Counted from the stretch's first letter, positions 36,964-59,978 are shown. The stretch is 64,000 nucleotides of DNA from Candidatus Magasanikbacteria bacterium RIFOXYD1_FULL_40_23 (GCA_001783215.1 MFRA01000001.1:157449-221448), one strand, 5' to 3'. Made by a program: numbers and translations. The notes: generated from the letters alone by a model not told the origin.

Positions 36964-37001
36964 TGTTTTTTGTTTTGTAAAGAACTTTTCCAATTTTTTC
37001 T

Positions 37002-37110
37002 TTTCACCACTCGCCTTTGCTTTTTGCTTCGGCGTAGCGAAGTGATGAGCAGAAAATTTGGGAGGAAGGGAGTGGTTGGTATTTCTCCAACAAGACTTCC
37101 CTTCCTCTTT
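37002..37110 (-). terminator. island 3' module B (duplicate of module A)
   Basis: ttttcaccactcgcctttgctttttgCTTCGgcgtagCGAAGtg...GAGGAAGGGAGtggttggtatttctccaacaagaCTTCCCTTCCTC, downstream of 37138..38025. Confidence 0.5.
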
Positions 37111-37137
37111 GACGACTGCCTCGAACTACTCGAGGCG

Positions 37138-38025
37138 CTACTTGCGCGTCACCTTGGCCGGCCGCGGGGTCTTCGGCGGCGGACCAGGGTGATTGACGGT
37201 CTTAATCCTGACCGTCACGGGCTTGACCGTTTCTTCTGCGGGCATCCCGGGCAGATCGCTTACCTTGATCCGATCCATCTTCTTGATCTGCTCAACATCG
37301 AGCTTGATGGAGTCGATGTCCTTCCGGACGTCGACCATCTGCTTGTTCAGCTTGCCGATGGCGGTCCACTGACCGCGCTGTCCCTTCTCGAATTTCTCGA
37401 GCTTCTCCACCCGCTCCTCGATCGTGGGCGGATCCACTTCCTCTTCCTGCGCAGCAGCACGCTCCGCACAGGGATCGTCGGCGGGAGCAGCTTCCTCCTC
37501 GGTCTCCTCCTCTTCGGTAGGCGTCACCACAGCCTGAGGCTGAGGCACTTCCTCCACCGCCGCGGGCGCGGGAGCCGGGGCGGCGACCGGCGGCGGAGCG
37601 TTCTCCGTCGGGGCAGCAGCACCGGAACCCTTGCCCACGTTGGTGACCTTGGTGCTGGCGGACTTGGACGAGTCCGAGCCACCGGACTTGAGCAGCATGA
37701 CGACGACGCCGAGAGCGACCAGGATCGCGATGGTGATCGCGAAGACGGTCCACGACTTCTTGTCGTCGGGCGGCGACGGGTCCGGCTGCTGGTACTGCAT
37801 GGTCTGCGGCGGCAGATTGATCTGCGCCGTGGGCGCCGCCGACTGCTGATACTGCGGCGGGAGCGTCGGGGGCGGGAGCGTCGGCTGGGGCGGGCTGCTG
37901 GGCAGCGGACGCTGCGGGGCCGGCGGCATGCCGGGGAGCGGGCGCTGCGGACTGATGGTCCCAGCAACAGGGGCTTGTGACCGAACAGTGGGCGAACCAT
38001 ACGGGGGCGTGGTCTTCTGCGGCAT
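37138..38025 (-). CDS. Pro-rich, single-pass membrane-anchored coiled-coil protein
   Basis: AAGGAG RBS. N-terminal PxxP-rich region, TM helix WTVFAITIAILVALGVVVMLL, Ala/Pro/Glu-rich linker, then C-terminal coiled-coil (EERVEKLEKFEK...). Two alternative high-GC frames were rejected. Confidence 0.6.
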   Translation of the reverse strand: MPQKTTPPYGSPTVRSQAPVAGTISPQRPLPGMPPAPQRPLPSSPPQPTLPPPTLPPQYQQSAAPTAQINLPPQTMQYQQPDPSPPDDKKSWTVFAITIAILVALGVVVMLLKSGGSDSSKSASTKVTNVGKGSGAAAPTENAPPPVAAPAPAPAAVEEVPQPQAVVTPTEEEETEEEAAPADDPCAERAAAQEEEVDPPTIEERVEKLEKFEKGQRGQWTAIGKLNKQMVDVRKDIDSIKLDVEQIKKMDRIKVSDLPGMPAEETVKPVTVRIKTVNHPGPPPKTPRPAKVTRK

Positions 38026-41400: not shown

Positions 41401-44045
41401 TAAAGAACCGTTTCATCCAATTTATTGTGCTGAGACATTTCTTTCTTAGCTTTATCAATATTCGTACGGATAACTTCCATTCTCCATTTAAAACTTTCCA
41501 TAACTTCCGGATTACCACTATTTTGTATAATTTTTTCTAAGGTACCAAAATCACGCTCATACATTTGTAAAAGCATTTTCTGTTCTGGAGATGGAAGGTT
41601 TTCTTCCCCAGATATTCGAGCTGTCGTAGGCGTCTCTAATGTATTTTTATCTGTTTCTGGAAAAGGTAAATCTACAGATGTCGGTTGAGATTTTTTATTG
41701 ATTTCAGCCAACCTACCATAAAATTTATTTTTTACTTCTTTTAACTCTTCTGGTAAGGTCAACTTACCAAAGGCTCTCATCAGTTTATCCAATTTTTCTT
41801 CGTATACATCTTCATTGTCCAAATTATTTTTTGCCTCTGCTATAGCATCCTTTACAGCTTGCAAGTCAGCAGTAAACTTAACACGTAAATTTTTATCCTG
41901 CTCATCCATTACCATCTCAAACAAAGACAAATCATCTTCTGTCTTCTTTATTCTATTTTCATATTCCTCTCTTTCCTGCTTTGTTCCAGAAGTTTCTTTT
42001 CCATTTAATCTAAGCTGATGCTCTTTTTTTACATTATTAGGAAGGGAATTCCACAACTCATTAATTAATACTTTTGCTTCCTTTAAATGAAGCTCGTGCG
42101 CCACACTGTCTTTTTCTACCAAACTTGCCTTCGCCTTATTTAAAAGCTGTATTGCAGCATCTACTAATAAAGATGTACGAGTTTCATAAAAATTATAACT
42201 TTTGTCTTTGCTATGAAAACGCTGTCGCATTATACGTTCAACCATCTTTATTCTCCTTATCTCTTCAAGGATAAGATCTACCCCTGAATCTTTGTCTTCT
42301 ACCTTGTCTTTAATTTCTTTTATAGAAGTCGTATCTTTTTTAACCATCTCTTCTCTTCTCAAAGAAGGTGTCTTGTCGGCAAGCTGGCTTTCGTACTCTA
42401 ATTTTACTTCTGATGGGACTTTGGTCAAAAGTTCAGTAAAGGCACTTTCGGCTCTATCTATTTCTCTGCTATGTACTCGAGGATTTCTGGCATGGTAAGT
42501 AAGGTCCAAGCTTTCCTCAATTTCTTCAACTAAAGACCTAATATTATCTGCTTGATCATCGGTCAAAATTTCTTCGGCAATATTTTTAAACAAAGCAAAC
42601 TTATCGTTCATTTCTTGATATCTTTTTTGTCTATATTCTGGAGCATCTTTATCAACAACCGCATCACCCACTACGACACTTGATTCTTTTTCGTCTTTTT
42701 CAACAACTGGTACCACTTTTTTCTTTTCACCTTTACCCAAAGAAGCTTTCTGGAGATTAAATTCTTTTCTTACCGCTTCTGAAACATTCAAAAAAACTTT
42801 GGTAAAATTGTGTTCAAATACTCTAAGCTGCTCTCTATATTCATCCCAATCATCGGTAGCTTCTATTTTTTCCAAAGCACTTTCAATTTTCTCTTCGTTT
42901 TCTTTGGTTTCTGCTCTTTCTTCTTTGGTCATTTTTTCCATAGCAAGAGACCTAAGCAACTCCCATCGCTCATCCGCATATTGCAATGTTTTATCCCTAT
43001 CTTCTTGCCAGTCTTTTTCCACAACTGGTTCTGCTTCTTTTTCTTTAGTCTTAACCTCTTCCTTTTCCCAGAATGGAGGGTTACCATTTAACTGACTAAA
43101 ATATTCCAACCTTGCTTTTGTTGGAATAGTGCGAATGATTAAATCAAAATTACGTTCAAACGCCGACATGGCGTTTTCGTATTCTTCTGCGTCATTAGAT
43201 TCAAGCGCTGTTTTTAAACCACCATTAATCGCATCCGTGGTTTCTTCGCTAACCGAACCTTCTCTCAACATTTTACCTATTATTTCCTGGAGAATATCCC
43301 ATCTTTTAACAGCATCCTGGTGTCTTTCTACTCTCTGCTCTTGCCCATTCTCAACAGCACCAGCTTTTCTTTTAGAGGCCTTCTTGGTTTTGTGCTCTGG
43401 CTTTTCTTTTTCGTCTTCTTCAGGCTCCGGCTGTAATTGTTCTGGAACCGCAATTTCTTTAGAATCAGTCTCAGCCTTATTTTCTCCTTTTTTTATATCC
43501 AAGAGAGCCAAGGTCTCTGTTTCTATTTCTAATTTTTTAGCCTCATAGCCTGCTGGGTCTTTAATCTCTAACAGTTCGGTAATTTCTCCCTTTATTTTTT
43601 TATATTTTCCAAAATTTTTAAACAAAACATTATCGCTCGCACTAGACTGTCCAACCAAATGCAACCTAGCTTCTTCGAGGTCTGCAAACAATTTAGCCTG
43701 CTCTATTTCTCTATCTTTTTTACCTTTATACTCTTTGAAGCTAAACGGCTTAGCTTCTGCCGATTTTCTTTTGGAATTTTTTGCTCCTTGAAACTCCAGC
43801 CCCAGGCTAGCAATTTCTAAATGAATTTTATTTTTAAATTCTTTTTTATTATCTGCACCATCATAAGAATCTAATTTTTCAGAAATCTTTCTTAAAGCCA
43901 AAATAAGATGGTCTTTTTTATCTTGAGGTATATCGGCCGAATTAATTTCGGCCTCTAACGAAGCCAGCCTAGTAGCTGTATCTTTTTGAAATGTGCTTTC
44001 ATTTTTATCTGGGGACGATCCCCTCTCCGGACCTCTTTTTGCCAT
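38451..44045 (-). CDS. giant K/E-rich surface/membrane protein (1864 aa), hypothetical
   Basis: The first about 900 aa are highly charged coiled-coil. A central region has hydrophobic helices (GLAIGKASYDTVTTLFGVKIITDIVYGGLTG, LNLGLTVTGISLLRGAVYLAASAF). The C-terminal region is globular. Start set at ATG 44045 (MAKRGPERG), which directly abuts the conserved leader. The track TTG at 44066 is less likely. Confidence 0.7.
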   Translation of the reverse strand: MAKRGPERGSSPDKNESTFQKDTATRLASLEAEINSADIPQDKKDHLILALRKISEKLDSYDGADNKKEFKNKIHLEIASLGLEFQGAKNSKRKSAEAKPFSFKEYKGKKDREIEQAKLFADLEEARLHLVGQSSASDNVLFKNFGKYKKIKGEITELLEIKDPAGYEAKKLEIETETLALLDIKKGENKAETDSKEIAVPEQLQPEPEEDEKEKPEHKTKKASKRKAGAVENGQEQRVERHQDAVKRWDILQEIIGKMLREGSVSEETTDAINGGLKTALESNDAEEYENAMSAFERNFDLIIRTIPTKARLEYFSQLNGNPPFWEKEEVKTKEKEAEPVVEKDWQEDRDKTLQYADERWELLRSLAMEKMTKEERAETKENEEKIESALEKIEATDDWDEYREQLRVFEHNFTKVFLNVSEAVRKEFNLQKASLGKGEKKKVVPVVEKDEKESSVVVGDAVVDKDAPEYRQKRYQEMNDKFALFKNIAEEILTDDQADNIRSLVEEIEESLDLTYHARNPRVHSREIDRAESAFTELLTKVPSEVKLEYESQLADKTPSLRREEMVKKDTTSIKEIKDKVEDKDSGVDLILEEIRRIKMVERIMRQRFHSKDKSYNFYETRTSLLVDAAIQLLNKAKASLVEKDSVAHELHLKEAKVLINELWNSLPNNVKKEHQLRLNGKETSGTKQEREEYENRIKKTEDDLSLFEMVMDEQDKNLRVKFTADLQAVKDAIAEAKNNLDNEDVYEEKLDKLMRAFGKLTLPEELKEVKNKFYGRLAEINKKSQPTSVDLPFPETDKNTLETPTTARISGEENLPSPEQKMLLQMYERDFGTLEKIIQNSGNPEVMESFKWRMEVIRTNIDKAKKEMSQHNKLDETVLYNMQAFAEDLQKHYPKLHAEFIQKISPQVPAAPAPEKKGVWGWVKEKASGLKKAVISKEFGLAIGKASYDTVTTLFGVKIITDIVYGGLTGRGDFAEWRKGSKESKTAVESIFAAHQDLLVASEKNKKGEALSENERIEKRIEYLKEKIGSANIKEEAKKQILERLWAISIKHKTETTKSRNDRDSEVRELLESYIHGKVSGVKIAKDALNLGLTVTGISLLRGAVYLAASAFEKIKQVKKEEIKDIAGSLKDKKDAKTFTKDIISSTAKETARALTFRGAKEGSSGVARAMDFVKALGTIARGVGIFNITVLHGGSPKESIDNLIQAIKEKDASIISDSFVQNAKRVWETPGNIGHLAESAWDKVTGHESIAPEIALPSSVAELPKEDIVAPVNTVSVEPVPEAIAPETALFSVQDFAAEHKLSEESLVPLQKLVEQYPSLKEESLSRILEASKVGDGVKFHHADLVRGDVDTLIEAEGERRSVIFEELVKAKDYEGAAKYLESQDFSSRHKSYLAEYIGKGTHEDYLKFVEQYDEKPDKKMVYGLFRAMQGKGNTDLANAGFFRAATEDRTGRTVSLQGGELKYFGLDEKGEPILSGQGRVVLKETVMVKITTSPTTIEEAPYEGDFKNAPAVELPEGDRAVLAEIEADKAKFAKMGEEAINISDRARAGEPVGTYVINAAKEKAGNLNGTSINDGMSVDDKLWANANIINDIQGPEVVGEETTTEKTLVGKTIKTFKASGEVVQAAPGAKQVEIKTSLENTAKSTSEIKPVSPTVEESAKQQAEKSEAIAGEPAELTEKSVESFKVMYQNFESMKANIALQKTEFIMVGDGQDILKKQIENEPSMASFKEYAKKVFAGDVSNLDEKVVESVRTMKDTLDAFNHIDKNPDWYKNLEGEELKLFLDPNKDGVKMLANDSHIARITDREGKEFLISDLDNTFVVKDGVLLKMDDGKIVQKYSYEEAVNLANDMLKNEPGAPIE

Positions 44046-44066
44046 ATACGATATGAGTGAGTGCAA

Positions 44067-44125
44067 AAGTTAAATGTATTTAACTTTACACGAGCGAATG
44101 AGTATATATGCGGCTTTAGCCCATA
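44067..44125 (-). promoter_or_regulatory. ACTCATTYCG leader element abutting the giant-gene start
   Basis: Minus strand: atatatGGGCTaaAGCCgcatataTACTCATTCGCTCGtgtaaagttaaatacatttaacttttgcaCTCACTCATATCGTAT-ATG. Confidence 0.45.
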
Positions 44126-46229: not shown

Positions 46230-46345
46230 ACATTTTGATTTCTAATTACTAATTTCTAAATTCTATTTTCGGACAAAGTGAGGGAAATGAAAATTTATTA
46301 TCATTTCCGAACGTGTCCAGAAAATACCTTAGTATTTTCTAATTT

Positions 46346-47143
46346 TTATTTCCAACGAACTACAAAAATTAAAAAGCTAATAAATAAAACTGTGTTTATT
46401 CCCAAAAACCATATTTGTTTTTTCCAAACTATACCTTCGGGAGTAAGATTAAATCTCGCCATAAGCCAAGCCATATACCAACACCAAATTAAAATTAGAC
46501 TGCTAATCAAATAACCCAGCGGCAAAAGATTTACCACCCAAAGCAATTCTAACATGAGCACAAACCATAAACCAACCCATACCCAAAAACGTTTGTTTAC
46601 GCTAGCACCATACTCTAACCACCACCAACCAGCAAAAAGTGCAGCACATATGGCTGTGATCACAAACCAAACCATAGCACTTACTCCTGGCACAATCTGA
46701 AAAGAAACAATAGCTTGAGCGCCTTCAAATATGCCGGCCAAACCAATTATTGACATAACAAAACGCCAACGCAGGTGGGGTTTTAAAAATACAGACAAAC
46801 TGACGTTGGAAGATGGCAATAACCAAAAACTGAAAAAAGAGAAAAAGGAAAAAAATGCTCCAAATAAATACCAAGCAAAGTTCCATTCTATAAACAATAG
46901 AAACGCCATTGAGCCTATGGTCATTACCACTAGCGACAGCAAATGTTTAAGGCGACTCATTTCTTTTGGATAATAAACCACCAACATAAATGCTAACCAG
47001 ACAAGCGTACGGATAATTAACCACATACCCACCATCCACCAAGCATTGAGCTGTTTTACCCACCCCAGCATTATGAGGTTTATAAACAAATCCAGCACGG
47101 CTGCCAGTTTTGGATGGAAAGATATTGGCTTAAAATTAAGCAT
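46346..47143 (-). CDS. hypothetical multi-pass membrane protein
   Basis: 265-aa ORF with about 8 TM helices. Confidence 0.5.
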   Translation of the reverse strand: MLNFKPISFHPKLAAVLDLFINLIMLGWVKQLNAWWMVGMWLIIRTLVWLAFMLVVYYPKEMSRLKHLLSLVVMTIGSMAFLLFIEWNFAWYLFGAFFSFFSFFSFWLLPSSNVSLSVFLKPHLRWRFVMSIIGLAGIFEGAQAIVSFQIVPGVSAMVWFVITAICAALFAGWWWLEYGASVNKRFWVWVGLWFVLMLELLWVVNLLPLGYLISSLILIWCWYMAWLMARFNLTPEGIVWKKQIWFLGINTVLFISFLIFVVRWK

Positions 47144-47308: not shown

Positions 47309-47542
47309 CTAGATTTGGCAAACAGCCTGGTTCAGCTTGCAGAACGAACTGACCATCTTGTATGCAAAGTACTGAAACTCTGCAACCGAACCAGCACACA
47401 ACACACCCAGCCAAAACACTGCTACCGAGATGATAACACACCTGGCGATGTTATTGGAAATGCGCGTAAGGCTTGATTCTTGCCGAAGGTACGGGTACAT
47501 GGAGAACCCCCTGTTTGACTTTAGGGATTTTGAAGCTGCCAC
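47309..47542 (-). CDS. possible small membrane protein (GTG start); competes with + ORF 47231..47476
   Basis: Contains a TM-like segment CVIISVAVFWLGVLCAGSV. The strand assignment is uncertain. Confidence 0.2.
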   Translation of the reverse strand: MAASKSLKSNRGFSMYPYLRQESSLTRISNNIARCVIISVAVFWLGVLCAGSVAEFQYFAYKMVSSFCKLNQAVCQI

Positions 47543-48267
47543 GAATCGGCTGCTCTGTACTTACAAACAACTGGTGACCAGAGCGGCTTTCTCACGGAGC
47601 TGAGAGTGTGAAGCATAGTACCTCGACCATCGCATTCATCTGGAAAGCGCTCGCCACTCATCTCCGCTTTTAGCTTGGCAACCTCTTCTGCGCCCAGCTG
47701 CTTCTCCAGCTCTGGCGAAAACCGAACTTCTTGCTCGGTCTCAACAGCAGATGACATCTGCGCTTCCATAATCACACGTCTTTCCTCGAGCTCTTTGGCC
47801 TGACCATCGGAATGGCTGAGCCTAACCGGACCGCAATATGATTCATAAGCCAGATTACTACAGGCTCTTTCCTTCATATCTCGACGGACAATGAACTCCA
47901 CCTCTTCGGTATAACGTGGAACACGACCACTGAACGAGCCGTCTTGGTGCCTTACCGGCAGCATCGTTACGGTGTATGAACGCCCATCATATTGGTAGCG
48001 CATTTCCACCAAAAACGGAATTTCCTTACCTGAGAACCTGTTCTGGTAAGGTTTCTCCAACACCTGAAGAGTATAAGTTTCAACATCATACCCATCAAGA
48101 TTGCCAGGATCCAAACGTTGATCCAAGCGTACTGTCTGCCTACAAGAATCGCTCTTGCAAACATTCTGTCCGTTAGGACCAGCACAGCCACAGCTATACA
48201 ACATGATAGCTAGGCCAATAAGGATAGAAACCAAAGTAATCAGCAGTCTGCGCATCGACATGGCCAT
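47521..48267 (-). CDS. hypothetical secreted/anchored protein
   Basis: GGAGG RBS before ATGGCCATG (MAMSMRRLLITLVSILIGLAIMLYSCGCAG). GC is above background. The track began it at 48345. Confidence 0.5.
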   Translation of the reverse strand: MAMSMRRLLITLVSILIGLAIMLYSCGCAGPNGQNVCKSDSCRQTVRLDQRLDPGNLDGYDVETYTLQVLEKPYQNRFSGKEIPFLVEMRYQYDGRSYTVTMLPVRHQDGSFSGRVPRYTEEVEFIVRRDMKERACSNLAYESYCGPVRLSHSDGQAKELEERRVIMEAQMSSAVETEQEVRFSPELEKQLGAEEVAKLKAEMSGERFPDECDGRGTMLHTLSSVRKPLWSPVVCKYRAADSWQLQNP

Positions 48268-48486
48268 TGCCTCCGTACTCCCCTTTTGCTGGGAAGATTT
48301 GTTTGGTACTACATGCGTAGAGCACTTACTCCAACGCACATACAAACAATCAATTTAAATTACTTGTATGTGCGTTAGAATTTTAAATTTTTAAATAACA
48401 AATACTTTCTCAACCATCTCTATTTTTAATAAAGATGATAATTGAAAGTGCGAAATATCTCGCACCGTATTTAAAGAGCAAATCGA

Positions 48487-48978
48487 TCACTTGAGCAACC
48501 TCACTTTTGGCAATTCCGGACGCTCTCCAGGATACCAAGCTGATGGGTCACAGAACATATCGATATATTCTACTCCGTCATAGTAGAATCGCTTTGCCAA
48601 CGATTCAAGAAAACACTGCGCAATTTCACGTAAATGCGGATTGTCCGAAAACAACTCACACTTCAATGGCCCTTTGGAATCATAGCGGCGGTCTCCTCCA
48701 AACACATCCTCCTGTGGCTTTGGTATCACAGCACCCGTGATGCGTAAAACATTTCGGCGCACAGTCTTTTCCCACAAGAATGGCCACCGACCACACCGCC
48801 TTGTTTTTCCAACCTGGAATGTGTAAATAACACTATCATCCAAGGTTTTTCTCGTTATTTCACCAACCCCTTCATAGTCTTTGAGATACAAACTAAACGA
48901 GTAGCAAATAAGTTCCGTGGCCAATTTAATTTCATCTATCCTCGAAAGCGCTTCTTTATCCGAAAGAAGATTTGACAT
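48487..48978 (-). CDS. hypothetical protein
   Basis: AAGGGTGG RBS before the ATG at 48978 (MSNLLSDKE...). The track used a GTG at 48987. Confidence 0.45.
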   Translation of the reverse strand: MSNLLSDKEALSRIDEIKLATELICYSFSLYLKDYEGVGEITRKTLDDSVIYTFQVGKTRRCGRWPFLWEKTVRRNVLRITGAVIPKPQEDVFGGDRRYDSKGPLKCELFSDNPHLREIAQCFLESLAKRFYYDGVEYIDMFCDPSAWYPGERPELPKVRLLK

Positions 48979-49133
48979 TATTACCACCCTTCCGAAATGT
49001 GATTAACCCAAATTGCTCGGGTAAATGTTCCGCTTATTTAGCGGATGGATTAAATTAACATAAAAAATATAAGCTGTCAAAGCTGGACACTTAATATGTT
49101 TTTTTGATACTATTAGGCCCAAAGGAGAACGAC

Positions 49134-51746: not shown

Positions 51747-53099
51747 TTATTCCTGTTCGGAATGCCAGCGGTGTACCGCCCTTGCCCAAGCTTTTTCAAA
51801 CTGAGGCGTAATATTTTGCGGATTTTCTACCCAGTACAACTGGAACCGATGGTAGTTTACTCTTTTCTTAAACGATTCTTCAAGCACCGCGCTTTGCACA
51901 GGGAATCCCAGACTATACGGCACAGCCTTGCCATATCTATCCAATACATTGTATTTGTCTGTTTTGGATTTACTGATCTGAAAATCTCCTGGGTCGACTA
52001 CCAAAGTAAAACAACCTTTGGCACGCAGTTCGTTTTCACACTCCAAGAGATCTTTCTTGAAATCAAACTCTCTTCGCATAGGCCAGCCACCCAACAAATC
52101 TAGGTTAAACACAGCGTCGCTTGGCCAACCAAAAACATCTTCAACTATGTTCCAAAGCCAAGCATCATCCTGCTTTAGCAAACCTTTCAGATCTACCATT
52201 CCCTCCTCTACCAAATACGGGTAAACTACTTTGTGCATCAATAGCTCCAAGAATTTCGTGGCTGGGGTGTTATACACTCCACCCCACAACAAAGCTCTCA
52301 GCCAAAGAAAGTTTTCCAGGACTTCCGGCTTAAGAACAACAACTTTGTCATCCACTAAATGAGTATAATGCCAAATATCCCATGGATTATCATTGGCAAA
52401 ACTCAAGATTTTACCAAAATTTTCAACTCCATGCCGATTGGCAATCCTGGAGATTTCTGCCAAATCACCCAACATATAACTGGCTGTATCGGCTATCTCT
52501 TGGATTTGCCCACGCAAACCATTGCCCCACACAATTGATTGCACTTCTTTTAGTGTGACGTGAGCATTTAGGCCATGACGCTTACAGAGTTTTCTCCATT
52601 CCTTCCCATTTAGCTGTAACATTTTCTGCATAAACCCATCGTCTTCATCACACATGCTCAACTGTCCAGCCATAGCTTTTTGCTGATTGGCAGACTTCCA
52701 CGAATCTCCACCCGAAAGTAACCACATATCGTGCAAAAGAGCAGCAAGTTGCCCAACAACCAACTCTCGCTCACCCACCCTAACTTTGGCGCCAATCAGC
52801 TGAAATATAGCTGCCGCTAGAAGTGAGTGATTCCAACGAGTATGGCAAAAAGTATGCGGCCCCACAAAAGGATTTGCCGTTTCTCCAATCAAAGCCCAGC
52901 TAATAAGTTGGAGCTGGTTTCTTCCTTTCAAGCTTCTATCCAAGCCTAGCAAATGAATAGCATCTGATAGCAGGCCCGAACTAAAGGAGAAAGATACGCT
53001 CCTATCGAGAGGCAAGACACCCTTTTGAGATACAGACTCACCTGAGAGCAGCGCAATGCCGCTCTCAAGGCCTTTTTTGTCCCTGGTCTTGATTGACAT
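51747..53099 (-). CDS. HD-domain phosphohydrolase (dNTP triphosphohydrolase-like)
   Basis: HD motif pair ...CHTRWNHSLLAAAI... and ...LAALLHDMW.... Confidence 0.55.
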   Translation of the reverse strand: MSIKTRDKKGLESGIALLSGESVSQKGVLPLDRSVSFSFSSGLLSDAIHLLGLDRSLKGRNQLQLISWALIGETANPFVGPHTFCHTRWNHSLLAAAIFQLIGAKVRVGERELVVGQLAALLHDMWLLSGGDSWKSANQQKAMAGQLSMCDEDDGFMQKMLQLNGKEWRKLCKRHGLNAHVTLKEVQSIVWGNGLRGQIQEIADTASYMLGDLAEISRIANRHGVENFGKILSFANDNPWDIWHYTHLVDDKVVVLKPEVLENFLWLRALLWGGVYNTPATKFLELLMHKVVYPYLVEEGMVDLKGLLKQDDAWLWNIVEDVFGWPSDAVFNLDLLGGWPMRREFDFKKDLLECENELRAKGCFTLVVDPGDFQISKSKTDKYNVLDRYGKAVPYSLGFPVQSAVLEESFKKRVNYHRFQLYWVENPQNITPQFEKAWARAVHRWHSEQE

Positions 53100-53171
53100 T
53101 TCGCATTACTCCTCTGGTTGTGAGTTGTAAAACAACAAAAATTGACTAACTATATTATAGCCAATTACAAA

Positions 53172-53201
53172 ACAAAAATCCCACCCTTTGTAAAGGTGGG
53201 A
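53172..53201 (-). terminator. intrinsic terminator of 53222..53731
   Basis: Minus strand: CCCACCtttacaaagGGTGGGattttt. Confidence 0.55.
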
Positions 53202-53221
53202 CCATTGTATTGAAGTTTTTA

Positions 53222-53731
53222 TTACGGAGTTGTGCTAGCAGAAGGGGTGGTGGTAGGGGTAGGAGTAGAAGTTGGACTTGGGGTGGTAGTTGGGGCTGGT
53301 GGAACTACCAATAATTTCCTAGCTTCTTTTAGAGCTGCTTGGTAAGCTCTGTTGGCTGCCAATATAGCGGCTCTATGTTCGGCTTGAGCTTTTTTAACAG
53401 CTGCCTGATAGGCTGCGTTTCTGGCTCTGCGTTCCGCGTCTTTTCTTTTTAATTCTGCTTTTCGCGCTTCAACTTTTGCTTTTCGTTCTGCAAGCAATTT
53501 TTCCTGTTGTTCTTTTTTTGCTTCTCTAGTATTTTTTACTTCTTCCTGCTTTTTTTCCATTTCTATCTTTTGAGCTGTGCGTAAGTTTTTCATCTCTTCT
53601 ACTTTTTTTTCATAAGCCTCTCTGGCATTGATGCTGGTTGTCATAGCATCAGTTTCTTCTGCGCTGACCAAAGAAGGAACAACGGAGAACATGACTGCCG
53701 CCATCAAAAAAATTGATAGAAACTTCTTCAT
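53222..53731 (-). CDS. secreted K/E/A-rich coiled-coil protein with Thr/Pro-rich C-terminal tail
   Basis: Signal peptide MKKFLSIFLMAAVMFSVVPSLVSA. C-terminal tail PPAPTTTPSPTSTPTPTTTPSASTTP. The start codon abuts a leader element. Confidence 0.55.
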   Translation of the reverse strand: MKKFLSIFLMAAVMFSVVPSLVSAEETDAMTTSINAREAYEKKVEEMKNLRTAQKIEMEKKQEEVKNTREAKKEQQEKLLAERKAKVEARKAELKRKDAERRARNAAYQAAVKKAQAEHRAAILAANRAYQAALKEARKLLVVPPAPTTTPSPTSTPTPTTTPSASTTP

Positions 53732-53805
53732 ATACGAAATGAGTGAGAGAAATAATCAAATGTTGTTGATTATTTCCGAGCGAATGAGTATATATGGGCT
53801 TTAGC
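53732..53805 (-). promoter_or_regulatory. ACTCATTYCG leader element abutting the start of 53222..53731
   Basis: Minus strand: cCACTCATTTCattaTATGGGCTaaAGCCCATATAtACTCATTCGCTCGgaaataatcaacaacatttgattatttctCTCACTCATTTCGTAT-ATG. The palindrome is perfect. Confidence 0.45.
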
Positions 53806-54020
53806 CCATATAATGAAATGAGTGGGCGTAGTAATTAAATACGCTTATCATTATATTAAATAAATAAATTTATATTTAAATTTTAACATACCAGCTAGCA
53901 TTTCGCAACTACCTAAATTTTGTAGTAGCTACGAAATACAGACGAAGCTTACGATAGCGGGTGGAGATCTTTTTTTCACCACCTTCTGACTGGCTTCGTC
54001 AATGTTTATCTCCTTTTCAT

Positions 54021-54239
54021 TCATCGGCGCGGGCCACGCATACGCCCAAGCACTGTTACCCTTAGAATCTTATACCACTCACCTACCGGTGGACCGTCTC
54101 GCAAAGCGATATCGCACAAACACTCCCGCTCGAGCTCTTCTAGAAGTTCGGAACTTTCCAATGTCGCTGCAAAAGCCTTAAGGTTGGTTGGATTATTTCT
54201 GTTAGAATCCACAAAGTGACGCTGACCTGTTGAAAGCAT
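54021..54239 (-). CDS. hypothetical small protein
   Basis: AGGAGGA RBS 5 nt before the ATG. 72-aa ORF. Confidence 0.45.
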   Translation of the reverse strand: MLSTGQRHFVDSNRNNPTNLKAFAATLESSELLEELERECLCDIALRDGPPVGEWYKILRVTVLGRMRGPRR

Positions 54240-54435
54240 GGCTGTCCTCCTAATAAAAGTATAGCACTTAAATAAAAAAATTGACAGTGCTTAGGTTATA
54301 TAATAGACTAAAAATATAATTCGATGCGAATATAAGCAATTATTTAATTATAATTATTTACATACGCGTTGAATTCTAAAAAACAAAACGTGTAGGCTTG
54401 ACCCTGCCAAAATGGGTACAGAAGGGTGTCGCGCC

Positions 54436-54756
54436 ATGAATCCCCTAACCCGAGAAGTTAACCCTCCAAGGTGGAGACTTAACCTTGCTAGCGCCTCGCT
54501 CTTCCATAGAGCCAAACCCTTTGCAAATGTTGCTCTGTACGTACTGCTGGTCTCTGGACTGGCCTGCAGCTTCCTCGCCCTTTTTCACCATATGACTACC
54601 AGGCCCGTGCCGACTTTTTTTCACGGCATGAACCATGCATTCATCATCTACCCACAGAACCAGTACGCACTTCTTCCATCCACGATACGCCTACAAGCAG
54701 GCTACGCATCGCACAACAAACGACTGAGAACTACAATCTTCTCAGACAATCATTAA
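54436..54756 (+). CDS. possible small membrane protein (alternatively a structured non-coding transcript)
   Basis: GAAGGGTG RBS-like tract before the ATG at 54436 (MNPLTREV...) and one TM segment. A strong terminator immediately follows. Coding status is uncertain. Confidence 0.25.
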   Translation: MNPLTREVNPPRWRLNLASASLFHRAKPFANVALYVLLVSGLACSFLALFHHMTTRPVPTFFHGMNHAFIIYPQNQYALLPSTIRLQAGYASHNKRLRTTIFSDNH

Positions 54757-54781
54757 AGGCCATTCAATGGCCGTTTTTTTT
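54755..54781 (+). terminator. intrinsic terminator
   Basis: aaaGGCCATTcAATGGCCgtttttttt. Confidence 0.6.
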
Positions 54782-54943
54782 ACTCACGCTCTCGGTATCA
54801 CCGAGGGCAATTTTTTTAATATATGGGCTTTGCATAAAAAATATTAGCTACACTATATTTTCTCATTCATTCAGAAATAGCCAGGCTCAATATTTATATC
54901 TTGCAAGCAGTCTATAAACATCTCACTGTCTATTTCACTCACT

Positions 54944-55030
54944 CATTTCGAAAATACTAAGGTATTTTTCATACACGCTCGTAAATGAAAATAAATTTTC
55001 ACTTATCTCACTTTGCATAAAAAATAAAAA
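54944..55030 (+). repeat. degenerate copy of the leader-element family
   Basis: CACTCACTCATTTCGaaaatACTAAGGTATTTttcatacacgctcgtaaatgaaaataaattttcacttatctcactttgcataaaaaa. Confidence 0.4.
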
Positions 55031-55137
55031 AGCCACCAACCAATCATACTTCCATCTAGTGAAAATATGGTTGGTATGGTGGTGGCTTTTTTGCAAACAC
55101 CCCATCATACACAGATCGTAAACAGATGTTGCGACGG

Positions 55138-55518
55138 CTACTTAACCGGCGCAGACCAAGTATGCACCCACTTGAATCGTTCCAGCAATTGCTTGCGGTC
55201 CATCTCCCAAATGTCCTTCGGGATAGAGACGCCCATCATCCGAACCAGGTCCGTGATCAACAGAATCAAACCGTACTCGATCTTAGACCAATCATCCCTG
55301 GGTTGCGGCTTCTCAAGGTGAGTAATGAGCTCTGCCAAGGCTTCCACAGGCTTACGTCGCAACTTTTCAGCAGCAATGGAAGCCGTCACACTGTCTGCGA
55401 TAGATGGCCCCTGACACAACCGAAGCTCGCGAATGAACATATTTGCATGCGTCTTCACAAGCACAGCAATCGGAACTTTCATTCTCGTAAACAGGCTAGC
55501 ACTGTCTGTTGTGTACAT
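55138..55518 (-). CDS. putative all-alpha NTP pyrophosphohydrolase (MazG-like) protein
   Basis: ...EALAELITHLEK...EYGLILLITDLVRMMG resembles the EExxE...D...L(I/V)YLLRLA blocks of MazG-like enzymes. GGAGAA RBS before the ATG at 55518. The track TTG is at 55545. Confidence 0.3.
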   Translation of the reverse strand: MYTTDSASLFTRMKVPIAVLVKTHANMFIRELRLCQGPSIADSVTASIAAEKLRRKPVEALAELITHLEKPQPRDDWSKIEYGLILLITDLVRMMGVSIPKDIWEMDRKQLLERFKWVHTWSAPVK

Positions 55519-55668
55519 GATGTTCTCCAATTCTATAACCTGCAATGACCATACTATAAAAATACAAAAAAGTCAATGCTGGACAAAAAAACACCGTTAT
55601 TTATGCGGTATTTTTATTGGCGGAGAGTAAGGGGCGAAGTGGAAACTTGAGCTAATATTAATTATTAA

Positions 55669-55745
55669 AAATACCAAGGTATTTTCTTCACACGTTCAGA
55701 AATTAAAATAAATTTTATTTCATTCACTTTGCTTGAAAATAAAAG
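55669..55745 (+). repeat. degenerate copy of the leader-element family
   Basis: ACCAAGGTATTTtcttcacacgttcagaaattaaaataaattttatttcattcactttgcttgaaaataaaagcc. Confidence 0.4.
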
Positions 55746-55787
55746 CCGCACCAGTGTATTGGCGCAGCCGTAACGAAAAACGAATGA

Positions 55788-56252
55788 TCAATCATCGGGG
55801 TTGAGCCAGTAACGAAATTGGCCCAATCCTTCATGGTCGTGTGTGATGAGAACAAAATTTCCACGGTTTGTTCCCCACAGCCACCATTCTCTTTTTTTCG
55901 CGGTAGAACGAATATTATTTTCCATGTCTCCCACAATGCAGAGTGCTAGCGCTAAGGGCCAGCGTCCCTTGTTGTGGTCGGTGCCTACAGCAAGCCCGTT
56001 CATATCCAAAACTTTATACACAACATCACTCCCGGGATTCCGTTCAATCTGATAAATAATGATGTTACCCTGACCATCTTTCCACTCATGATAATCGTCC
56101 GTACCCAATCTTATCAAAGATTCCATGGTCAGCTTAAGCAGTCTTTCGGGGATTACTCCGTTGGGCTTGTTTCTTTCCAGTAGGAAATCAACCCGTTCCT
56201 TACCGCCTCTGATTTCGTTTATGACTTCATCACCATGCAGAAGTTTGGACAT
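55788..56252 (-). CDS. hypothetical protein
   Basis: AGGAGGA RBS 4 nt before the ATG. 154-aa ORF. Confidence 0.45.
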   Translation of the reverse strand: MSKLLHGDEVINEIRGGKERVDFLLERNKPNGVIPERLLKLTMESLIRLGTDDYHEWKDGQGNIIIYQIERNPGSDVVYKVLDMNGLAVGTDHNKGRWPLALALCIVGDMENNIRSTAKKREWWLWGTNRGNFVLITHDHEGLGQFRYWLNPDD

Positions 56253-56499
56253 GTTTCCTCCTGGCTGGATTTAACAACATTAAACGTGTTTTGTCAATGT
56301 ATAATCCGTTATTTCCCTCCACGCAAAAAGAAGGCTGCATACGGAACCTGCTTTTTCGCGGGGTGTATGGGACGACGTGGGAACTTGTTTAAACAAAAAC
56401 AACCCAGTTATATGAGTTGCTTTTGATAATACCGCGAATGTTTTTATCGACATCTTATTAGGCGTTTCGCGGTGGTACGCCAGTAATCGTTGTGGAACT

Positions 56500-56781
56500 C
56501 TAGTCGTTAATGATAATCTCGAAGTCACCCCAGTCAATCGGCTTACCATTATTAAGGTGATGGGGATTGTCGACGAGTTCCCCGTTTTTCCATTGCCGCC
56601 AAGCACCTTCAGCCATGCCGACCATGGTTCCTTTTATGACTAGCCAGTTACCATTGTGACCGAGCGGATTGGGAATGCGCTCCAGCTCAAAGTCACCTGG
56701 CCCCCTTTCCACCTTGCTTCTGTTGGGAGAAGAAGCGTCAATAAGTTCCCAGACTCGCTTGAGTGTTGCCTTCATGACCAT
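56500..56781 (-). CDS. hypothetical protein
   Basis: AAGGGG RBS before the ATG at 56781 (MVMKATLKRVWELI...). The track began it at 56844. Confidence 0.4.
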   Translation of the reverse strand: MVMKATLKRVWELIDASSPNRSKVERGPGDFELERIPNPLGHNGNWLVIKGTMVGMAEGAWRQWKNGELVDNPHHLNNGKPIDWGDFEIIIND

Positions 56782-56893
56782 GGCCCCTTGTGTATTTGTT
56801 GGTAACCGATGAATAAAGATAACATAAAAAAATATTAAAGTCAATGATACTAAAACAAAAAACAGCCTTTTATGAAAGCTGCTTTTTGTTTAG

Positions 56894-56914
56894 AGCGGGT
56901 CGGACGGGACTCGG
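56894..56914 (-). repeat. duplicate of the tRNA-Asp 3' end (GCGGGTCGGACGGGACTCG) 166 bp downstream of the tRNA
   Basis: 19 to 21 nt are identical to 57079..57099. A candidate att-site remnant. Confidence 0.4.
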
Positions 56915-57079
56915 CTTCACCTCTCACTCGCTTCCACTCGTTCGGGTTAGCCACCACCTCGCGGTCGCACTCGCCTGCCTGCGTCGTGCGACATCGCTCC
57001 GGCGTTCTCGTCCCGACGTAATGCAAACTATTGCATTACTTCCGCCCACGCAAAAAGAAGGCTTTCGCCTTCTTCTTTT

Positions 57080-57153
57080 GCGGGTCGGACGGGACTCGAA
57101 CCCGCAACTTCTGCCGTGACAGGGCAGTGCTCTAACCAGTTGAACTACCGACC
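57080..57153 (-). tRNA. tRNA-Asp (GTC)
   Basis: Minus strand: GGGTCGGtaGTTCAACTGGTtAGAGCACTGCCCTGTCACGGCAGaagtTGCGGGTTCGAGTCCCGTCCGACCCg. 7-bp acceptor stem, anticodon loop CUGUCAC, T-loop GGTTCGAGTCC. CCA is not encoded. Confidence 0.8.
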
Positions 57154-57339
57154 CAAATTGTTTGATTTATCCTGTTAAATGCTGCTTTGCAGACCCCGCC
57201 TTGCGGGGATTTAACAGGATGAACAAGAAAATTATACAAAAAAACCAAGAATATGTCAACTTTACTGTTCTGGCTTGAATATTATGAAGGGATAGGCTAG
57301 GATAGATTTTACATACTCTCATCCAAGGAAAAACATCCA

Positions 57340-57639
57340 ATGGACAAAATCGTCAGAACAAAACTTGCTCCTTCAGCTCATTCCGAAGAAAAATGGTCCG
57401 CCGAAATGCGACCTACATTGCTAGGGCTACTGGTCCACGCAACCCTTAGAAACCACCCGGATAACAACGGTGGAACCATTTACTTCTACTTCATCCCCCG
57501 TTCAGAAATCTTGGATGCCCTGCGCCTAAACAACCCTACGGCTCACGCCTACTGGGAAAAAGAGATGGCCACACACTTTGGCCTCATGTTCTACACAGAG
57601 GAAGCTACTCTCTGCGAAGACTTGAGAGCGCAATACTAA
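57340..57639 (+). CDS. hypothetical small protein, paralog family member A (YWE motif)
   Basis: AAGGAAAAA RBS. Shares ...SEILDALRLNNPTAHAYWEKE with paralogs B and C. Confidence 0.5.
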   Translation: MDKIVRTKLAPSAHSEEKWSAEMRPTLLGLLVHATLRNHPDNNGGTIYFYFIPRSEILDALRLNNPTAHAYWEKEMATHFGLMFYTEEATLCEDLRAQY

Positions 57640-57658
57640 GCACCGTGCCAACTTTAAC

Positions 57659-57747
57659 CAAAGGTGCTCTGCGCAACAAATCCCGTTCGCATCACCTGAT
57701 TTATTTCTAAATAATTGGAAACAAATCAGGGCGAACGGGATTTTTGG
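57659..57747 (+). terminator. structured 3' element R1 (extended hairpin + U-run), family of three
   Basis: aaaggtgctctgcgcaacAAATCCCGTTCGCatCACCTGATTTatttctaaataattggaaacAAATCAGGGCGAACGGGATTTttggttt. Confidence 0.55.
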
Positions 57748-57877
57748 TTTAACGAAACCATATCGCGTAACGTCATTTGAAACGCGACGCTTTTATAAAT
57801 TTTAAGAACAGATAAGGTCTTGAAAAATAATTATATATGGTATATAGTGGCGTCAAATCAAATCGGAGATTCGCACC

Positions 57878-58150
57878 ATGAAAATCACGCTAAAGAACCC
57901 TCGTTTCAGCTGTCGTAAACCCGACGGCCATAGAGATTGCAAACATGCAGATCAAGGCATGACTCAAGAACTTGCCGGACTAAGCCTAGAAGCATCCTTG
58001 CAAAGCTGCGGGCACTATCGATGTGACAGAGATACTTTGCTTAAGGCAATAGAGCTGAGAAACGGTCTCAACTCACCCTTGTACAAGTATTGGGAAGACT
58101 TCTTGCCCACCGACCAACCTATCCACTTTCCACAAGAAGAAATTGAATAG
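57878..58150 (+). CDS. hypothetical small protein, paralog family member B
   Basis: Shares ...RDTLLKAIELRNGLNSPLYKYWEDF with A and C. Confidence 0.5.
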   Translation: MKITLKNPRFSCRKPDGHRDCKHADQGMTQELAGLSLEASLQSCGHYRCDRDTLLKAIELRNGLNSPLYKYWEDFLPTDQPIHFPQEEIE

Positions 58151-58180
58151 GAGCTAGTCAGTTAGCATAAAATAACGCTC

Positions 58181-58278
58181 ACAAAGGGTGCTCTCCGAAC
58201 AAATCCCGTTCGCAACACCTGAAATATTTCTAAATTTTTGGAAGTATCTCAGGGAGGATAGCGAGCGGGTTTTTGTTT
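58181..58278 (+). terminator. structured 3' element R2
   Basis: acaaagggtgctctccgaacAAATCCCGTTCGCaaCACCTGAaatatttctaaatttttggaagtatCTCAGGgaggataGCGAGCGGGTTTttgttt. The outer stem is kept with a wobble. Confidence 0.55.
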
Positions 58279-58351
58279 ATACCCACTCTTGTAAAAAATA
58301 GATAAAATCTTTATACTAGCAACCAAGACAACAACCTTTGAGGTACAAACC

Positions 58352-58885
58352 ATGGAACCTGCCACAAAAGTTTTGGTAAGGTTTATCAAGGCTCCAAACG
58401 GTCATTCGCGCCTAAGAGAAGACATGCGCAACGCTCTAGTGGGCGTTATGGTAAAAGCAGTCCCAGATCCCAACTGCTTTATTATTGAAAACAGCAATGT
58501 CTTACTAGAAGCGATCGCAGCGCAGCGCCCTCCGAGCGTACACTTCTACTGGGAAGAAGTTCTTGCCCATGACTCAAAGCCTATTTTTCTAGGACGAAGC
58601 GAGTGCGAACCTGTCTACGGCTTCCAACTAGAGCTTATCACACCTCTGCCCAGCACGAGCCTTCATAAAGAAATTTGCAGAGCCTGTGTCGGTTTAAAAA
58701 TCAGGCTAGAGCCTGGAGCTTTTGAACCACAGAAAAATGGCTTCTACGCCAACCTACTGATGGTAACTGACCAACTACAACAACACAATCACGTGGTCTT
58801 CTCGCGTTACGTGGCTAACTTGCCTACCACAGAGACTGTTCGCACATTGTTCTTGCCAGCCCATACATACAAAATCTTGCCATAG
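58352..58885 (+). CDS. hypothetical protein, paralog family member C (N-terminal paralog domain + about 90-aa extension)
   Basis: GAGGT RBS. Shares VRFIKAPNGHSR...LLEAIAAQRPPSVHFYWEEV with A and B. Confidence 0.55.
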   Translation: MEPATKVLVRFIKAPNGHSRLREDMRNALVGVMVKAVPDPNCFIIENSNVLLEAIAAQRPPSVHFYWEEVLAHDSKPIFLGRSECEPVYGFQLELITPLPSTSLHKEICRACVGLKIRLEPGAFEPQKNGFYANLLMVTDQLQQHNHVVFSRYVANLPTTETVRTLFLPAHTYKILP

Positions 58886-58899
58886 ATATGGCTACGCAT

Positions 58900-58995
58900 C
58901 AAAAGGTGTTGCGTTACAACCCCGTTCGCACCACCTGATTTACTCCCAACACATTGGAGGTAGATCAGGAGGATGACCGCGAACGGGGTTTTGTT
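58900..58995 (+). terminator. structured 3' element R3
   Basis: caaaaggtgttgcgttacAACCCCGTTCGCacCACCTGATTTACTCCcaacacattGGAGGTAGATCAGGaggatgaccGCGAACGGGGTTttgttt. The compensatory t-to-c / a-to-g change relative to R1 preserves the outer stem. Confidence 0.55.
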
Positions 58996-59036
58996 TACAG
59001 GAGATATTTTTTATTATATGCTTATATAGTATTAAA

Positions 59037-59624
59037 ATGCTAAATAGACCTATGTCCGAAACAAAATTTACACCGCCAGAAGCGCAGGCTAAACCAAAAA
59101 CCGAAAAAGAAGACCTTCTCAAGAGACTGCTCTCTCCAGAAATAAAAAAATTAATACTTAGCATAGCTTACAAATACAGCGTCAAACCAAGCGATGCGGA
59201 AGATGTTGTGCAAACTGTTCTATTTAATGCCTACAGAGCTATTTCTGAAGGAAGATTTGATGAAAAAGATGCAAAATTAACAAGTTGGTTACACACAATA
59301 ACAAAAAATGAATGCATAAATTTATTTAGAAAAGAAAATCGACTATCAAAAAACGACTTAACTGCCGTAGAATTTGACGACAATAGAGTAGAAGGCCACC
59401 TTCCTACAAGCGTAGATCATATAGAAAACAAAGAAAAAGATGAGGCACTGCAAGGTTTATTAAGGAAATTAAAACCAAAACAACAAGCAGTTATGGAGTT
59501 GTACTTACAGGGATACAGCCAAAAAGAAATTGGAGAAAAACTAGACATGCCGACTAATACAGTAGGCGTCCAAACACACTATGCAAAAAAGCGAATGCTA
59601 GAATTGCTAGAAGAAGAGAAATAA
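59037..59624 (+). CDS. RNA polymerase sigma-70 family (ECF-type) sigma factor
   Basis: Region 2-like DAEDVVQTVLFNAYRAISEGRFD...SWLHTITKNECINLFRKE. Region 4 HTH LKPKQQAVMELYLQGYSQKEIGEKLDMPTNTVGVQTHYAKKRM. Confidence 0.75.
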   Translation: MLNRPMSETKFTPPEAQAKPKTEKEDLLKRLLSPEIKKLILSIAYKYSVKPSDAEDVVQTVLFNAYRAISEGRFDEKDAKLTSWLHTITKNECINLFRKENRLSKNDLTAVEFDDNRVEGHLPTSVDHIENKEKDEALQGLLRKLKPKQQAVMELYLQGYSQKEIGEKLDMPTNTVGVQTHYAKKRMLELLEEEK

Positions 59625-59663: not shown

Positions 59664-59978
59664 TTATTTCTTTTCGGTAGTAGAAACAACAGTATTTTCT
59701 ACAGGGGCACCCACATTGCGCCATCCGCTCATCATACCCGGACCGAAGTTACCGTTGCGGTACATCATGTTATATCCGCCATAATTGTCGTATCCCCAAC
59801 CGCCAAAATAACCGCGTAACACACCCAATTTATATCCAAAGCAAAAAACTATAATAAGCACTACTGCGCCTATTACCCAATGCAACAAAGACTTGTGGCC
59901 CCAACCACAACCCGTTTTGCCTCCCCCACAACAACTTCCACCTTCTTTGTTACCACAACCCATTTTGTCGTCACACAT
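59664..59978 (-). CDS. Gly/Cys-rich small membrane protein
   Basis: N-terminal CxxC/GG-rich region, one TM helix (HWVIGAVVLIIVFCFGY), and a Gly/Tyr/Asn-rich tail. Confidence 0.45.
   Translation of the reverse strand: MCDDKMGCGNKEGGSCCGGGKTGCGWGHKSLLHWVIGAVVLIIVFCFGYKLGVLRGYFGGWGYDNYGGYNMMYRNGNFGPGMMSGWRNVGAPVENTVVSTTEKK

Follow-up and report, generated by a model that had tools for sequence, protein, structure and literature searches.

The 3' part of tRNA genes is a target of integrases, and a direct repeat of that part marks the far end of the inserted DNA. Flexible or replacement genomic islands are hypervariable chromosomal regions between conserved anchors. Genomes of the candidate phyla radiation (CPR), or Patescibacteria, are small, and a large share of their genes has no known function. 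Our searches of the literature on CPR genomic islands and Magasanikbacteria found nothing specific to the locus described here, a tract of small genes around the tRNA-Asp gene at about 54-59 kb of a 64,000-nucleotide stretch from Candidatus Magasanikbacteria bacterium RIFOXYD1_FULL_40_23 (MFRA01000001.1:157449-221448). This whole stretch is hereafter called the window, and positions refer to it unless a contig is named; its sequence is identical in contigs of Candidatus Magasanikbacteria bacterium RIFOXYD2_FULL_39 (GCA_001783315.1), a groundwater species of ultra-small bacteria, and is also found on a 394-kb ENA contig. The tract appears to be a variable chromosomal corner, and neither a dead mobile element nor a recognizable defence system.

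The reading that we favor, and consider probable with ample room for doubt, is that the tract is a genus-specific neighborhood of small, separately transcribed orphan genes around tRNA-Asp, composed of three layers. In the right arm, genes F, G and H would derive from tandem duplication of a gene-plus-terminator unit, with H holding its domain twice, and the arm would have been inherited vertically between tRNA-Asp and the gene of an extracytoplasmic function (ECF) sigma factor. The left arm (A, B and C) would have been inherited as very divergent alleles. Directly 3' of tRNA-Asp there would be two replaceable slots, holding E and D in the window and umuDC with an unrelated open reading frame (ORF) in a sister. 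Copies of the tRNA 3' end would be the footprints or substrates of the recombination that swaps the slot contents, which could be homologous exchange or else site-specific insertion by a recombinase that acts in trans or has meanwhile been lost. The divergence mosaic of A, B, C, G, H and the sigma factor gene would stem from an exchange of alleles or from diversifying selection, and the hairpins, as intrinsic terminators, would make each gene monocistronic. The features are as follows, where L-numbers denote contigs of relatives and L097 and L103 are two contigs of one metagenome-assembled genome (MAG) of a sister species.

51747..53731, minus strand: genes of a 450-aa HD-like protein and a 169-aa secreted coiled-coil protein, left flank (GC 0.446 and 0.425; 78-81% identical in L103)
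54021..54239, minus strand: gene A, 72 aa, small helical cytosolic ORFan, divergent from B (ORF; AGGAGG site; promoter-like sequence 54287-54258)
54412..54756, plus strand: gene B, 114 aa, single-pass membrane ORFan (promoter TTGACA-17-TAGACT 54281-54309; terminator 54758-54772)
54931..55038, plus strand: leader-family repeat copy without a gene (repeat families, blastn, alignment)
55138..55518, minus strand: gene C, 126 aa, all-alpha ORFan family (ORF; shared bidirectional terminator 55026-55092)
55664..55746, plus strand: second leader-family copy without a gene, running into the terminator of D (repeat families, blastn, alignment)
55788..56252, minus strand: gene D, 154 aa, variable slot 2 (ORF; AGGAGG site; terminator 55744-55769)
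56302..56373, minus strand: degenerate copy of the tRNA-Asp 3' end with its terminator and flank, far border of the E slot (73-nt alignment to 57029-57095, 73%, E 3e-6)
56500..56781, minus strand: gene E, 93 aa (or 91 aa from 56775), variable slot 1 (ORF; promoter 56844-56816; AAGGGG site)
56895..57051, minus strand: element X, a 157-nt GC-rich conserved element (ends in a 19/19 copy of the tRNA-Asp 3' end; own terminator hairpin 56853-56891)
57080..57154, minus strand: tRNA-Asp(GTC) (ARAGORN and Rfam; promoter TTGACA-17-TATAAT 57259-57231; terminator-like hairpin 57045-57084)
57340..57639, plus strand: gene F, 99 aa, one copy of a new ~85-aa domain (79-84% identical orthologues at the same place in L095 and L097)
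57660..57753, plus strand: predicted hairpin terminator T1 after F, 28-bp stem and U tract (repeat and fold)
57878..58150, plus strand: gene G, 90 aa, Cys/His-rich, same domain family as F and H (81% identical in L097, 42% in L095; promoter 57820-57848)
58184..58282, plus strand: predicted hairpin terminator T2 after G (covariance-model match)
58352..58885, plus strand: gene H, 177 aa, domain in tandem duplicate (alignment; 70-73% identical in L095 and L093, 30% in L097)
58900..59000, plus strand: predicted hairpin terminator T3 after H, immediately 5' of the ECF sigma promoter (covariance-model match)
59052..59624, plus strand: ECF sigma factor gene, right boundary (Pfam Sigma70_r2 and r4_2; start set by orthologues)

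Past the 3' end of tRNA-Asp, the minus strand carries in order the tRNA hairpin, X, the X terminator, E, the 73-nt degenerate copy and D. In L103, exactly the position of E is occupied by a umuD-like and umuC-like pair (an S24 peptidase resembling UmuD/LexA and a Y-family polymerase resembling UmuC/DinB; L103 252-2131) with a host-like GC content of 0.37-0.38, and an unrelated 86-aa ORF on the other strand stands in place of D. Slot 1 is bracketed by the same tRNA-derived repeats in both species. In the window these include the tRNA-Asp 3'-end copy at 56895-56913, which is the last 19 nt of X, and in L103 a terminator copy (2249-2289; 93% identical to 57048-57087) lies between umuDC and the 86-aa ORF. 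Presence or absence thus differs from the sister for E and D and not for A-C or F-H, with one sister genome showing the slots. E occurs on contigs of the host species only, and D has no relative but itself among 5.8e9 proteins.

The E and D slots at the tRNA 3' end, bracketed by tRNA-3' copies, are the classical footprint of insertion at a tRNA. The resemblance to tRNA-targeted islands consists in a variable stretch next to the 3' end of tRNA-Asp that is flanked by copies of the terminal 19-25 nt of the tRNA and is filled differently in the sisters. X, E and D have this 3' location and the distal direct repeat is present (the 19/19 copy, the degenerate 73-nt copy and their equivalent in L103), whereas F-H lie on the 5' side. 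The locus further differs from such islands in that it holds no integrase or mobility gene, the cassettes are single genes of 0.5 kb, the copies include the tRNA terminator, one tRNA-3' copy forms part of the conserved 157-nt X, and inserted DNA makes up only the smaller part of the GC-elevated tract. Compared with flexible or replacement islands, the likeness lies in the anchors rplT and PPDK, the same position in relatives, the divergent alleles, the gene replacement and the atypical composition. The differences are the very small scale, a content of cytosolic and membrane ORFans instead of glycosyltransferase or polysaccharide genes, and a GC content higher than that of the host.

The tRNA-Asp gene sits between PPDK and rplT also in the distant relatives L013 and L014, where none of A-H was called between these anchors and where the 50-56 nt of tRNA-Asp compared are still 100% identical. 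These two were the informative contigs when PPDK served as a synteny anchor, which otherwise led mostly to unrelated phyla. In L013, a 24-25-nt copy of the tRNA-Asp 5' half (3775-3799) lies about 100 nt upstream of the intact gene; together with the slot differences, this suggests that rearrangement at tRNA-Asp is recurrent. A 48-nt palindrome (57171-57218), unique in the window and absent from L095 and L097, lies in the leader between the tRNA-Asp promoter and the tRNA. A further contig, L007 (a 3.8-kb scaffold), joins a PPDK gene 58% identical to that of the window to tRNA-Asp, X, E, D and C at 99.9%, and carries two private SNPs (single-nucleotide polymorphisms). This might be a recent inter-genus transfer or a chimera assembled via the conserved tRNA, and we lean towards the chimera.

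L103 has a conserved element X at positions 1-136 (79% over 126 nt), the tRNA-3' copy included. A reading of X as a small ORF was rejected since the between-species changes compared all alter the amino acid in translations of the aligned sequences. The sequences of both species fold separately into the same four-arm shape, with minimum free energies of -72.6 and -76.6 kcal/mol and z-scores of -4.2 and -5.8 against mononucleotide shuffles, where the L097/L103 sequence was joined across a contig break inside a palindrome with a placeholder loop. The predicted fold has a closing stem pairing GUGGGCGG with CCGACCCGC, two variable arms whose sequence differs per species, and one conserved arm with two wobble-compatible changes (by inspection of the two sequences); X alone without the closing stem gave a z-score of only -1.6. 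Candidate roles for X are those of a structured RNA and of a conserved site of recombination. X resembles the tRNA-like domains of tmRNA and the bacterial Y-RNA-like YrlA in that its end is the 3' strand of a tRNA acceptor and T loop, and in that its predicted closing stem is acceptor-like. It differs from them in having no match in Rfam and no complete T arm, and in being known from two sequences.

The right arm is retained in the sisters. In L095 and L097 the order is tRNA-Asp, F, G, H, ECF sigma and PPDK; in L095, alone of the two, a 104-aa gene precedes PPDK, and the short contig L093 covers H, sigma, this same gene and PPDK. F, G and H are paralogues (BLASTP E 4e-6 for F-H and 3e-3 for F-G), and alignment with orthologues shows that a domain of ~85 residues occurs once in F and G and twice in H. 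The paralogous proteins are only 27-32% identical to each other, and the family has about nine members among the 5.8e9 proteins, all in close relatives. An AF2 model of the N-terminal domain of H had block-mean pLDDT values of 66-88 and no fold match. F and H are under purifying selection: the ratio of non-synonymous to synonymous divergence (dN/dS) was 0.13 in F and 0.10-0.16 in H, and their synonymous sites are close to saturation. GC at third codon positions (GC3) is 0.43-0.53 in the F-H orthologues and 0.23-0.33 in the sigma and PPDK genes beside them. That a high GC3 is kept despite near-saturated synonymous sites argues for a maintained property and not for the fading signal of an import. 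The sigma factor is 53%, 43% and 34% identical in L095, L097 and L093, compared with 84-87% for PPDK in the same three, and is by these alignments itself fast-evolving. Convergent with the ECF sigma gene, the window carries the gene of the 104-aa protein (59664-59978, minus strand), a Cys/Gly-rich protein with a single predicted membrane pass, which is 90-92% identical in L095 and L093 (dN/dS 0.02-0.05); no such gene was called in L097, where sigma abuts PPDK.

Behind each of F, G and H lies an element of ~100 nt. The copies share a consensus hairpin of 28 pairs, five of them with compensatory changes, that leads into TTTTTGTTT and has an invariant core, CCGTTCGCA.CACCT. T1-T3 thus have the GC-rich stem and the U tract past the stop codon of a predicted intrinsic terminator. 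A covariance model gave strong matches only behind F, G and H, in the window, L095, L093 and L097, the copy after F being absent in L097. It matched nowhere else in the 64 kb, at other loci or in viral contigs, with the exception of a weak 25-bit match to the terminator between the C and B orthologues of L105. The 36 viral matches to the hairpin core were rejected as chance, as none fit the covariance model. The copies are 68-91% identical, paralogous or orthologous alike, and as the proteins are 27-32% identical, the hairpin sequence seems more constrained than a plain terminator requires. T1-T3 read as intrinsic terminators that were duplicated with their genes, and possibly they have a binding function in addition. 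A short hairpin, TCGCGTAACGTCATTTGAAACGCGAC, lies between T1 and the promoter of G (57763-57788), and similar sequences were seen by eye at the same place in L095 (about 565-600) and between the C and B orthologues in L103 (about 3250-3290), which suggests that the left and right arms share small non-coding modules.

In the left arm, synteny extends to three sister species for B and C and to two for A, at identities of only 30-54%. L103 has the order S24 peptidase, Y-family polymerase, 86-aa ORF, C, B, A, coiled-coil gene, HD-like gene and rplT. In L142 the order is C, B, A (a 55-aa ORF, apparently truncated) and the coiled-coil gene, and in L105 the orthologue of C is convergent with that of B, as in the window. 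A has orthologues at the same position in L103 (41% over 61 aa, E 4e-9) and L142, with a proportion of non-synonymous differences (pN) of 0.42, below the synonymous proportion (pS) of 0.80. B is 53-54% identical in L105, with weaker orthologues in L103 and L142; its layout is a conserved N-terminus followed by a hydrophobic helix. Four homologues of C at 39-50% identity were found by a HMMER scan of 1.84e9 representatives. Because pN is lower than pS in all left-arm pairs, A, B and C are real genes.

The first-pass annotation had called one protein, C, weakly MazG-like. C shares with the all-alpha NTP pyrophosphohydrolases of this type an all-alpha structure of ~125 residues, and the suggestion was not upheld: no MazG or PRA-PH profile matched C at E <= 0.1 or its four homologues at E <= 1, a PDB profile search gave no MazG-type match to C, and C does not show the four-helix fold with a conserved acidic metal-binding motif. 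Of the folds predicted for the tract proteins, one is a helical bundle of a generic kind and the other a small alpha/beta domain without a match.

The divergence of these genes is a mosaic. Against L097/L103, pN is 0.09-0.11 for PPDK, HD, F and G and 0.32-0.46 for C, B, A, H and sigma, and pS is 0.64-0.80 for the latter five and 0.54 for PPDK. The closest relative also changes from gene to gene, as G is 81% identical to L097 and 42% to L095, and H 30% to L097 and 70-73% to L095/L093. Within the species the SNP numbers are small: two strain differences across 14 kb, both non-synonymous and both in E, and four SNPs in H, all non-synonymous. These point the same way as the mosaic pattern, which fits an exchange of old alleles or diversifying selection.

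Composition sets the tract apart as had been proposed, with GC per kb at 54-59 kb (0.42-0.46) above most of the window (~0.35-0.40) and below the 32-38 kb block (0.50-0.64). Genes A-H have 45-50% GC, against a host value of ~37% and 30-35% in the spacers; at 200-bp resolution the genes reach 45-53% and the spacers remain at 30-35%. Codon statistics agree, as GC3 is 0.44-0.61 in the eight genes compared with 0.36 +/- 0.07 in 28 other genes of the window. The left limit of 54 kb was too narrow, since the elevated GC begins at 51.6 kb, just past rplT, and takes in the 450-aa HD-like gene. Also the gene count needed correction. Eight small ORFs with ribosome-binding sites exist, the number that had been listed under a heading of nine, and a ninth called by annotators (56844-57119, plus strand) runs over tRNA-Asp and is spurious. 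B starts at 54412 and not 54436, as judged from the N-terminus MGTEGCR.MNPLTREVN that is conserved in L105. The tRNA-Asp gene and the two orphan leader-family repeats were as described.

A consensus scan of the tract found 19 promoter-like sites (9.4 +/- 3.7 expected) and 13 terminator-like sites (4.9 +/- 2.1 expected), and Shine-Dalgarno-like and promoter-like hexamers were seen by reading the sequence for A and C-H, the genes checked. With promoter-like, ribosome-binding and terminator-like sites of their own, the genes look like separate transcription units. As the first-pass annotation had stated, the tract has no integrase. No ORF of the tract matched Pfam, NCBIfam or PHROG, and the only ORFs longer than 140 aa are A-H and their antisense shadows, which leaves no space for one. 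Likewise, no A-H protein matched Pfam, PHROGs, PADLOC or NCBIfam (E <= 0.1), housekeeping families included, which agrees with the earlier statement that none is a housekeeping protein. PDB sequence and profile searches with the tract proteins gave nothing, and no phage, viral-contig or plasmid-type relatives of these proteins were found. Scans of viral contigs with the DNA cores and with D and E found nothing, D and C had no tblastn match in GenBank phages, and metagenome scans with the HD protein and the F alignment were both empty. Rfam gave no match beyond the tRNA and tmRNA, either with the gathering cutoff or at E <= 5.

Several points weigh against the favored reading. No recombinase was found in the tract, and a mechanism for swapping the slots is therefore inferred. 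The tRNA-3' copy within X is kept between species, as would be expected of a functional element more than of a decaying att scar. For D and E, which have no homologues, the case for coding comes only from ORF length, from ribosome-binding, promoter and terminator sites, and from GC by codon position. The slot comparison is made with one sister genome, whose two contigs, L097 and L103, were joined through a palindrome, and in several assemblies the contigs end at tRNA-Asp or beside it, which limits the comparison and could conceal other arrangements. In addition, L105 was placed in the L095 species only because they share a run.

The alternatives can be weighed against the same observations. 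The proposal of the first-pass annotation that the whole of 54-59 kb is one decayed integrated element, i.e., a prophage or island remnant that entered at tRNA-Asp and lost its integrase, accounts for the atypical GC, for the tRNA position with direct repeats of the tRNA 3' end and for the fact that all genes are ORFans. If L007 is a real contig, its junction of a 58% PPDK with tRNA, X, E, D and C at 99.9% would in addition represent a recent transfer; it can also be an assembly chimera through the 75-nt tRNA, of which the 50-56 nt compared are 100% identical in distant relatives. The part of the proposal that holds concerns E and D, which are absent from the sister and accompanied by the tRNA-3' copies. 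F-H lie on the tRNA 5' side and A-C beyond the repeats, both are syntenic and under purifying selection in the sisters, GC3 has been maintained despite near-saturated synonymous sites, and no phage, viral or plasmid-type protein was found. Comparison with related genomes thus gave a divided answer, with E and D replaced in L103 and F-G-H and A-C kept in the sisters, and for the tract as a whole a single decayed element is quite unlikely. It is also rather improbable that D and E, perhaps together with X, are not genes but filler without function that rearrangements left behind. That D has no homologue but itself, that E is found only on host-species contigs and that X folds with a z-score of -1.6 without its closing stem would fit such filler. 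The ORFs of 154 and 93 codons have AGGAGG and AAGGGG sites, E has its own promoters and terminators, GC1 exceeds GC2 as in coding sequence, and X is 79% identical across species with synonymous sites differing by more than 50%. A more far-reaching idea, which we consider very unlikely, is that the hairpins and the tRNA-3' copies with X are recombination sites of an integrase-independent or trans-served cassette exchange in CPR bacteria, with X as a tRNA-like RNA or DNA cofactor. Under such an exchange, alleles of small orphan genes would be shuffled between species, and E, D and umuDC would be loaded next to tRNA-Asp, which is likewise a long shot.

The arrangement of F, G and H calls to mind an integron-like cassette array (CALIN) with non-canonical attC sites, as three small ORFs in the same orientation are each followed by a similar imperfect palindrome of ~100 nt, and the palindromes are 68-91% identical compared with 27-32% for the proteins. 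Yet the tract has no integron integrase, and no RYYYAAC...GTTRRRY box pair at 50-150 nt spacing was found on either strand at 53.7-59.1 kb. Unlike in integron arrays, moreover, each hairpin ends in a U tract, the genes have their own promoter-like sites (by reading; those of G and H also in the scan), order and content are kept in three species, and the ORFs are paralogous instead of unrelated cassettes. This makes an integron origin hardly credible. Another suggestion was a defence or toxin-immunity islet, with novel anti-phage or orphan immunity genes. Small, fast-diverging genes with allele mosaicism, whose within-species SNPs in E and H are all non-synonymous, are what would be expected of conflict genes, and a variable position beside a tRNA fits as well. 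The searches did not bear it out: PADLOC, Pfam (Imm families included), NCBIfam and PHROG profiles gave no match for the eight proteins at E <= 0.1, and no match came from PDB sequences, phages or viral contigs, where the PADLOC null for the eight proteins cannot exclude novel defence genes. In addition, there is no enzymatic domain, adjoining toxin gene or operon structure, and the predicted folds are generic (the helical bundle) or unmatched (the alpha/beta domain). We therefore regard a defence islet as unlikely, and our guess is that strain-specific interaction functions (host, phage or envelope) are the most likely ones for these proteins.

A variable corner with small orphan genes gives a bounded example of how a small CPR genome varies, in which the tRNA 3' flank would take up single-gene cassettes between the rplT and PPDK anchors. 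At non-synonymous sites, a set of its orphan families diverges at three to five times the rate of the neighboring housekeeping genes. The objects it offers for test are a small all-alpha family, a candidate tRNA-like RNA, and a new domain family of ~85 residues that has a family-specific predicted terminator. Should the genes mediate interactions with host or phage, they would mark strain-level specificity in Magasanikbacteria. For now, the result amounts to useful annotation and is no surprise.

The leader-family repeat that brackets C is dispersed. Seven copies of ~85-100 bp occur in the window (21368-21446, 32020-32106, 44040-44125, 46262-46346, 53726-53830, 54931-55038 and 55664-55746), each with two hairpins of varying sequence and CACTCATTTCG-like boxes. 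By reading, the coiled-coil gene and a 1871-aa gene each have a copy directly at the start codon. The two that flank C are followed by bidirectional terminators in place of a gene. In L103, copies are found at 7218-7302 and 11044-11127, other places than in the window, and none lies upstream of the coiled-coil gene (by reading). The spacer between the C and B orthologues of L105 also lacks the copy, being 184 nt long compared with 382 nt in the window, with nothing that aligns to window 54821-55019 by blastn. As the positions differ between sisters, the copies appear to have spread after the species split. A 143-bp difference in the GenBank contig L004 was considered as an insertion polymorphism of the repeat and rejected, as it equals a run of N at a scaffold gap. 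The consensus RNA fold of the repeat is weak (-1.3 kcal/mol, with one sequence in the wrong orientation).

In the left flank, the 450-aa protein (51747-53099, minus strand) has an H...HD motif with a sub-threshold Pfam HD match (E 0.06) and no NCBIfam match. It is 78-79% identical in the sister species and had no relative in two metagenome scans.

Elsewhere in the window, GC-elevated ORFan genes without a Pfam match are found at 282-959, 1145-1786, 47521-48345 and 48487-48987 (GC 0.44-0.50). The latter two align only partly in the sister MAG, at 56-60% identity compared with 89% for a neighboring gene, so that elevated GC is paired with fast divergence here as in the studied tract. The block at 32000-38000 spans 6 kb of 50-64% GC in a genome of ~37% GC. 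It has no Rfam match, and its long ORFs (e.g., 33415-35664, 749 aa) have no Pfam match. Internal direct repeats occur at 34567-34764/34828-35025 (72%) and 35711-35812/36868-36969 (96%), and the left edge of the block bears a leader-family repeat.

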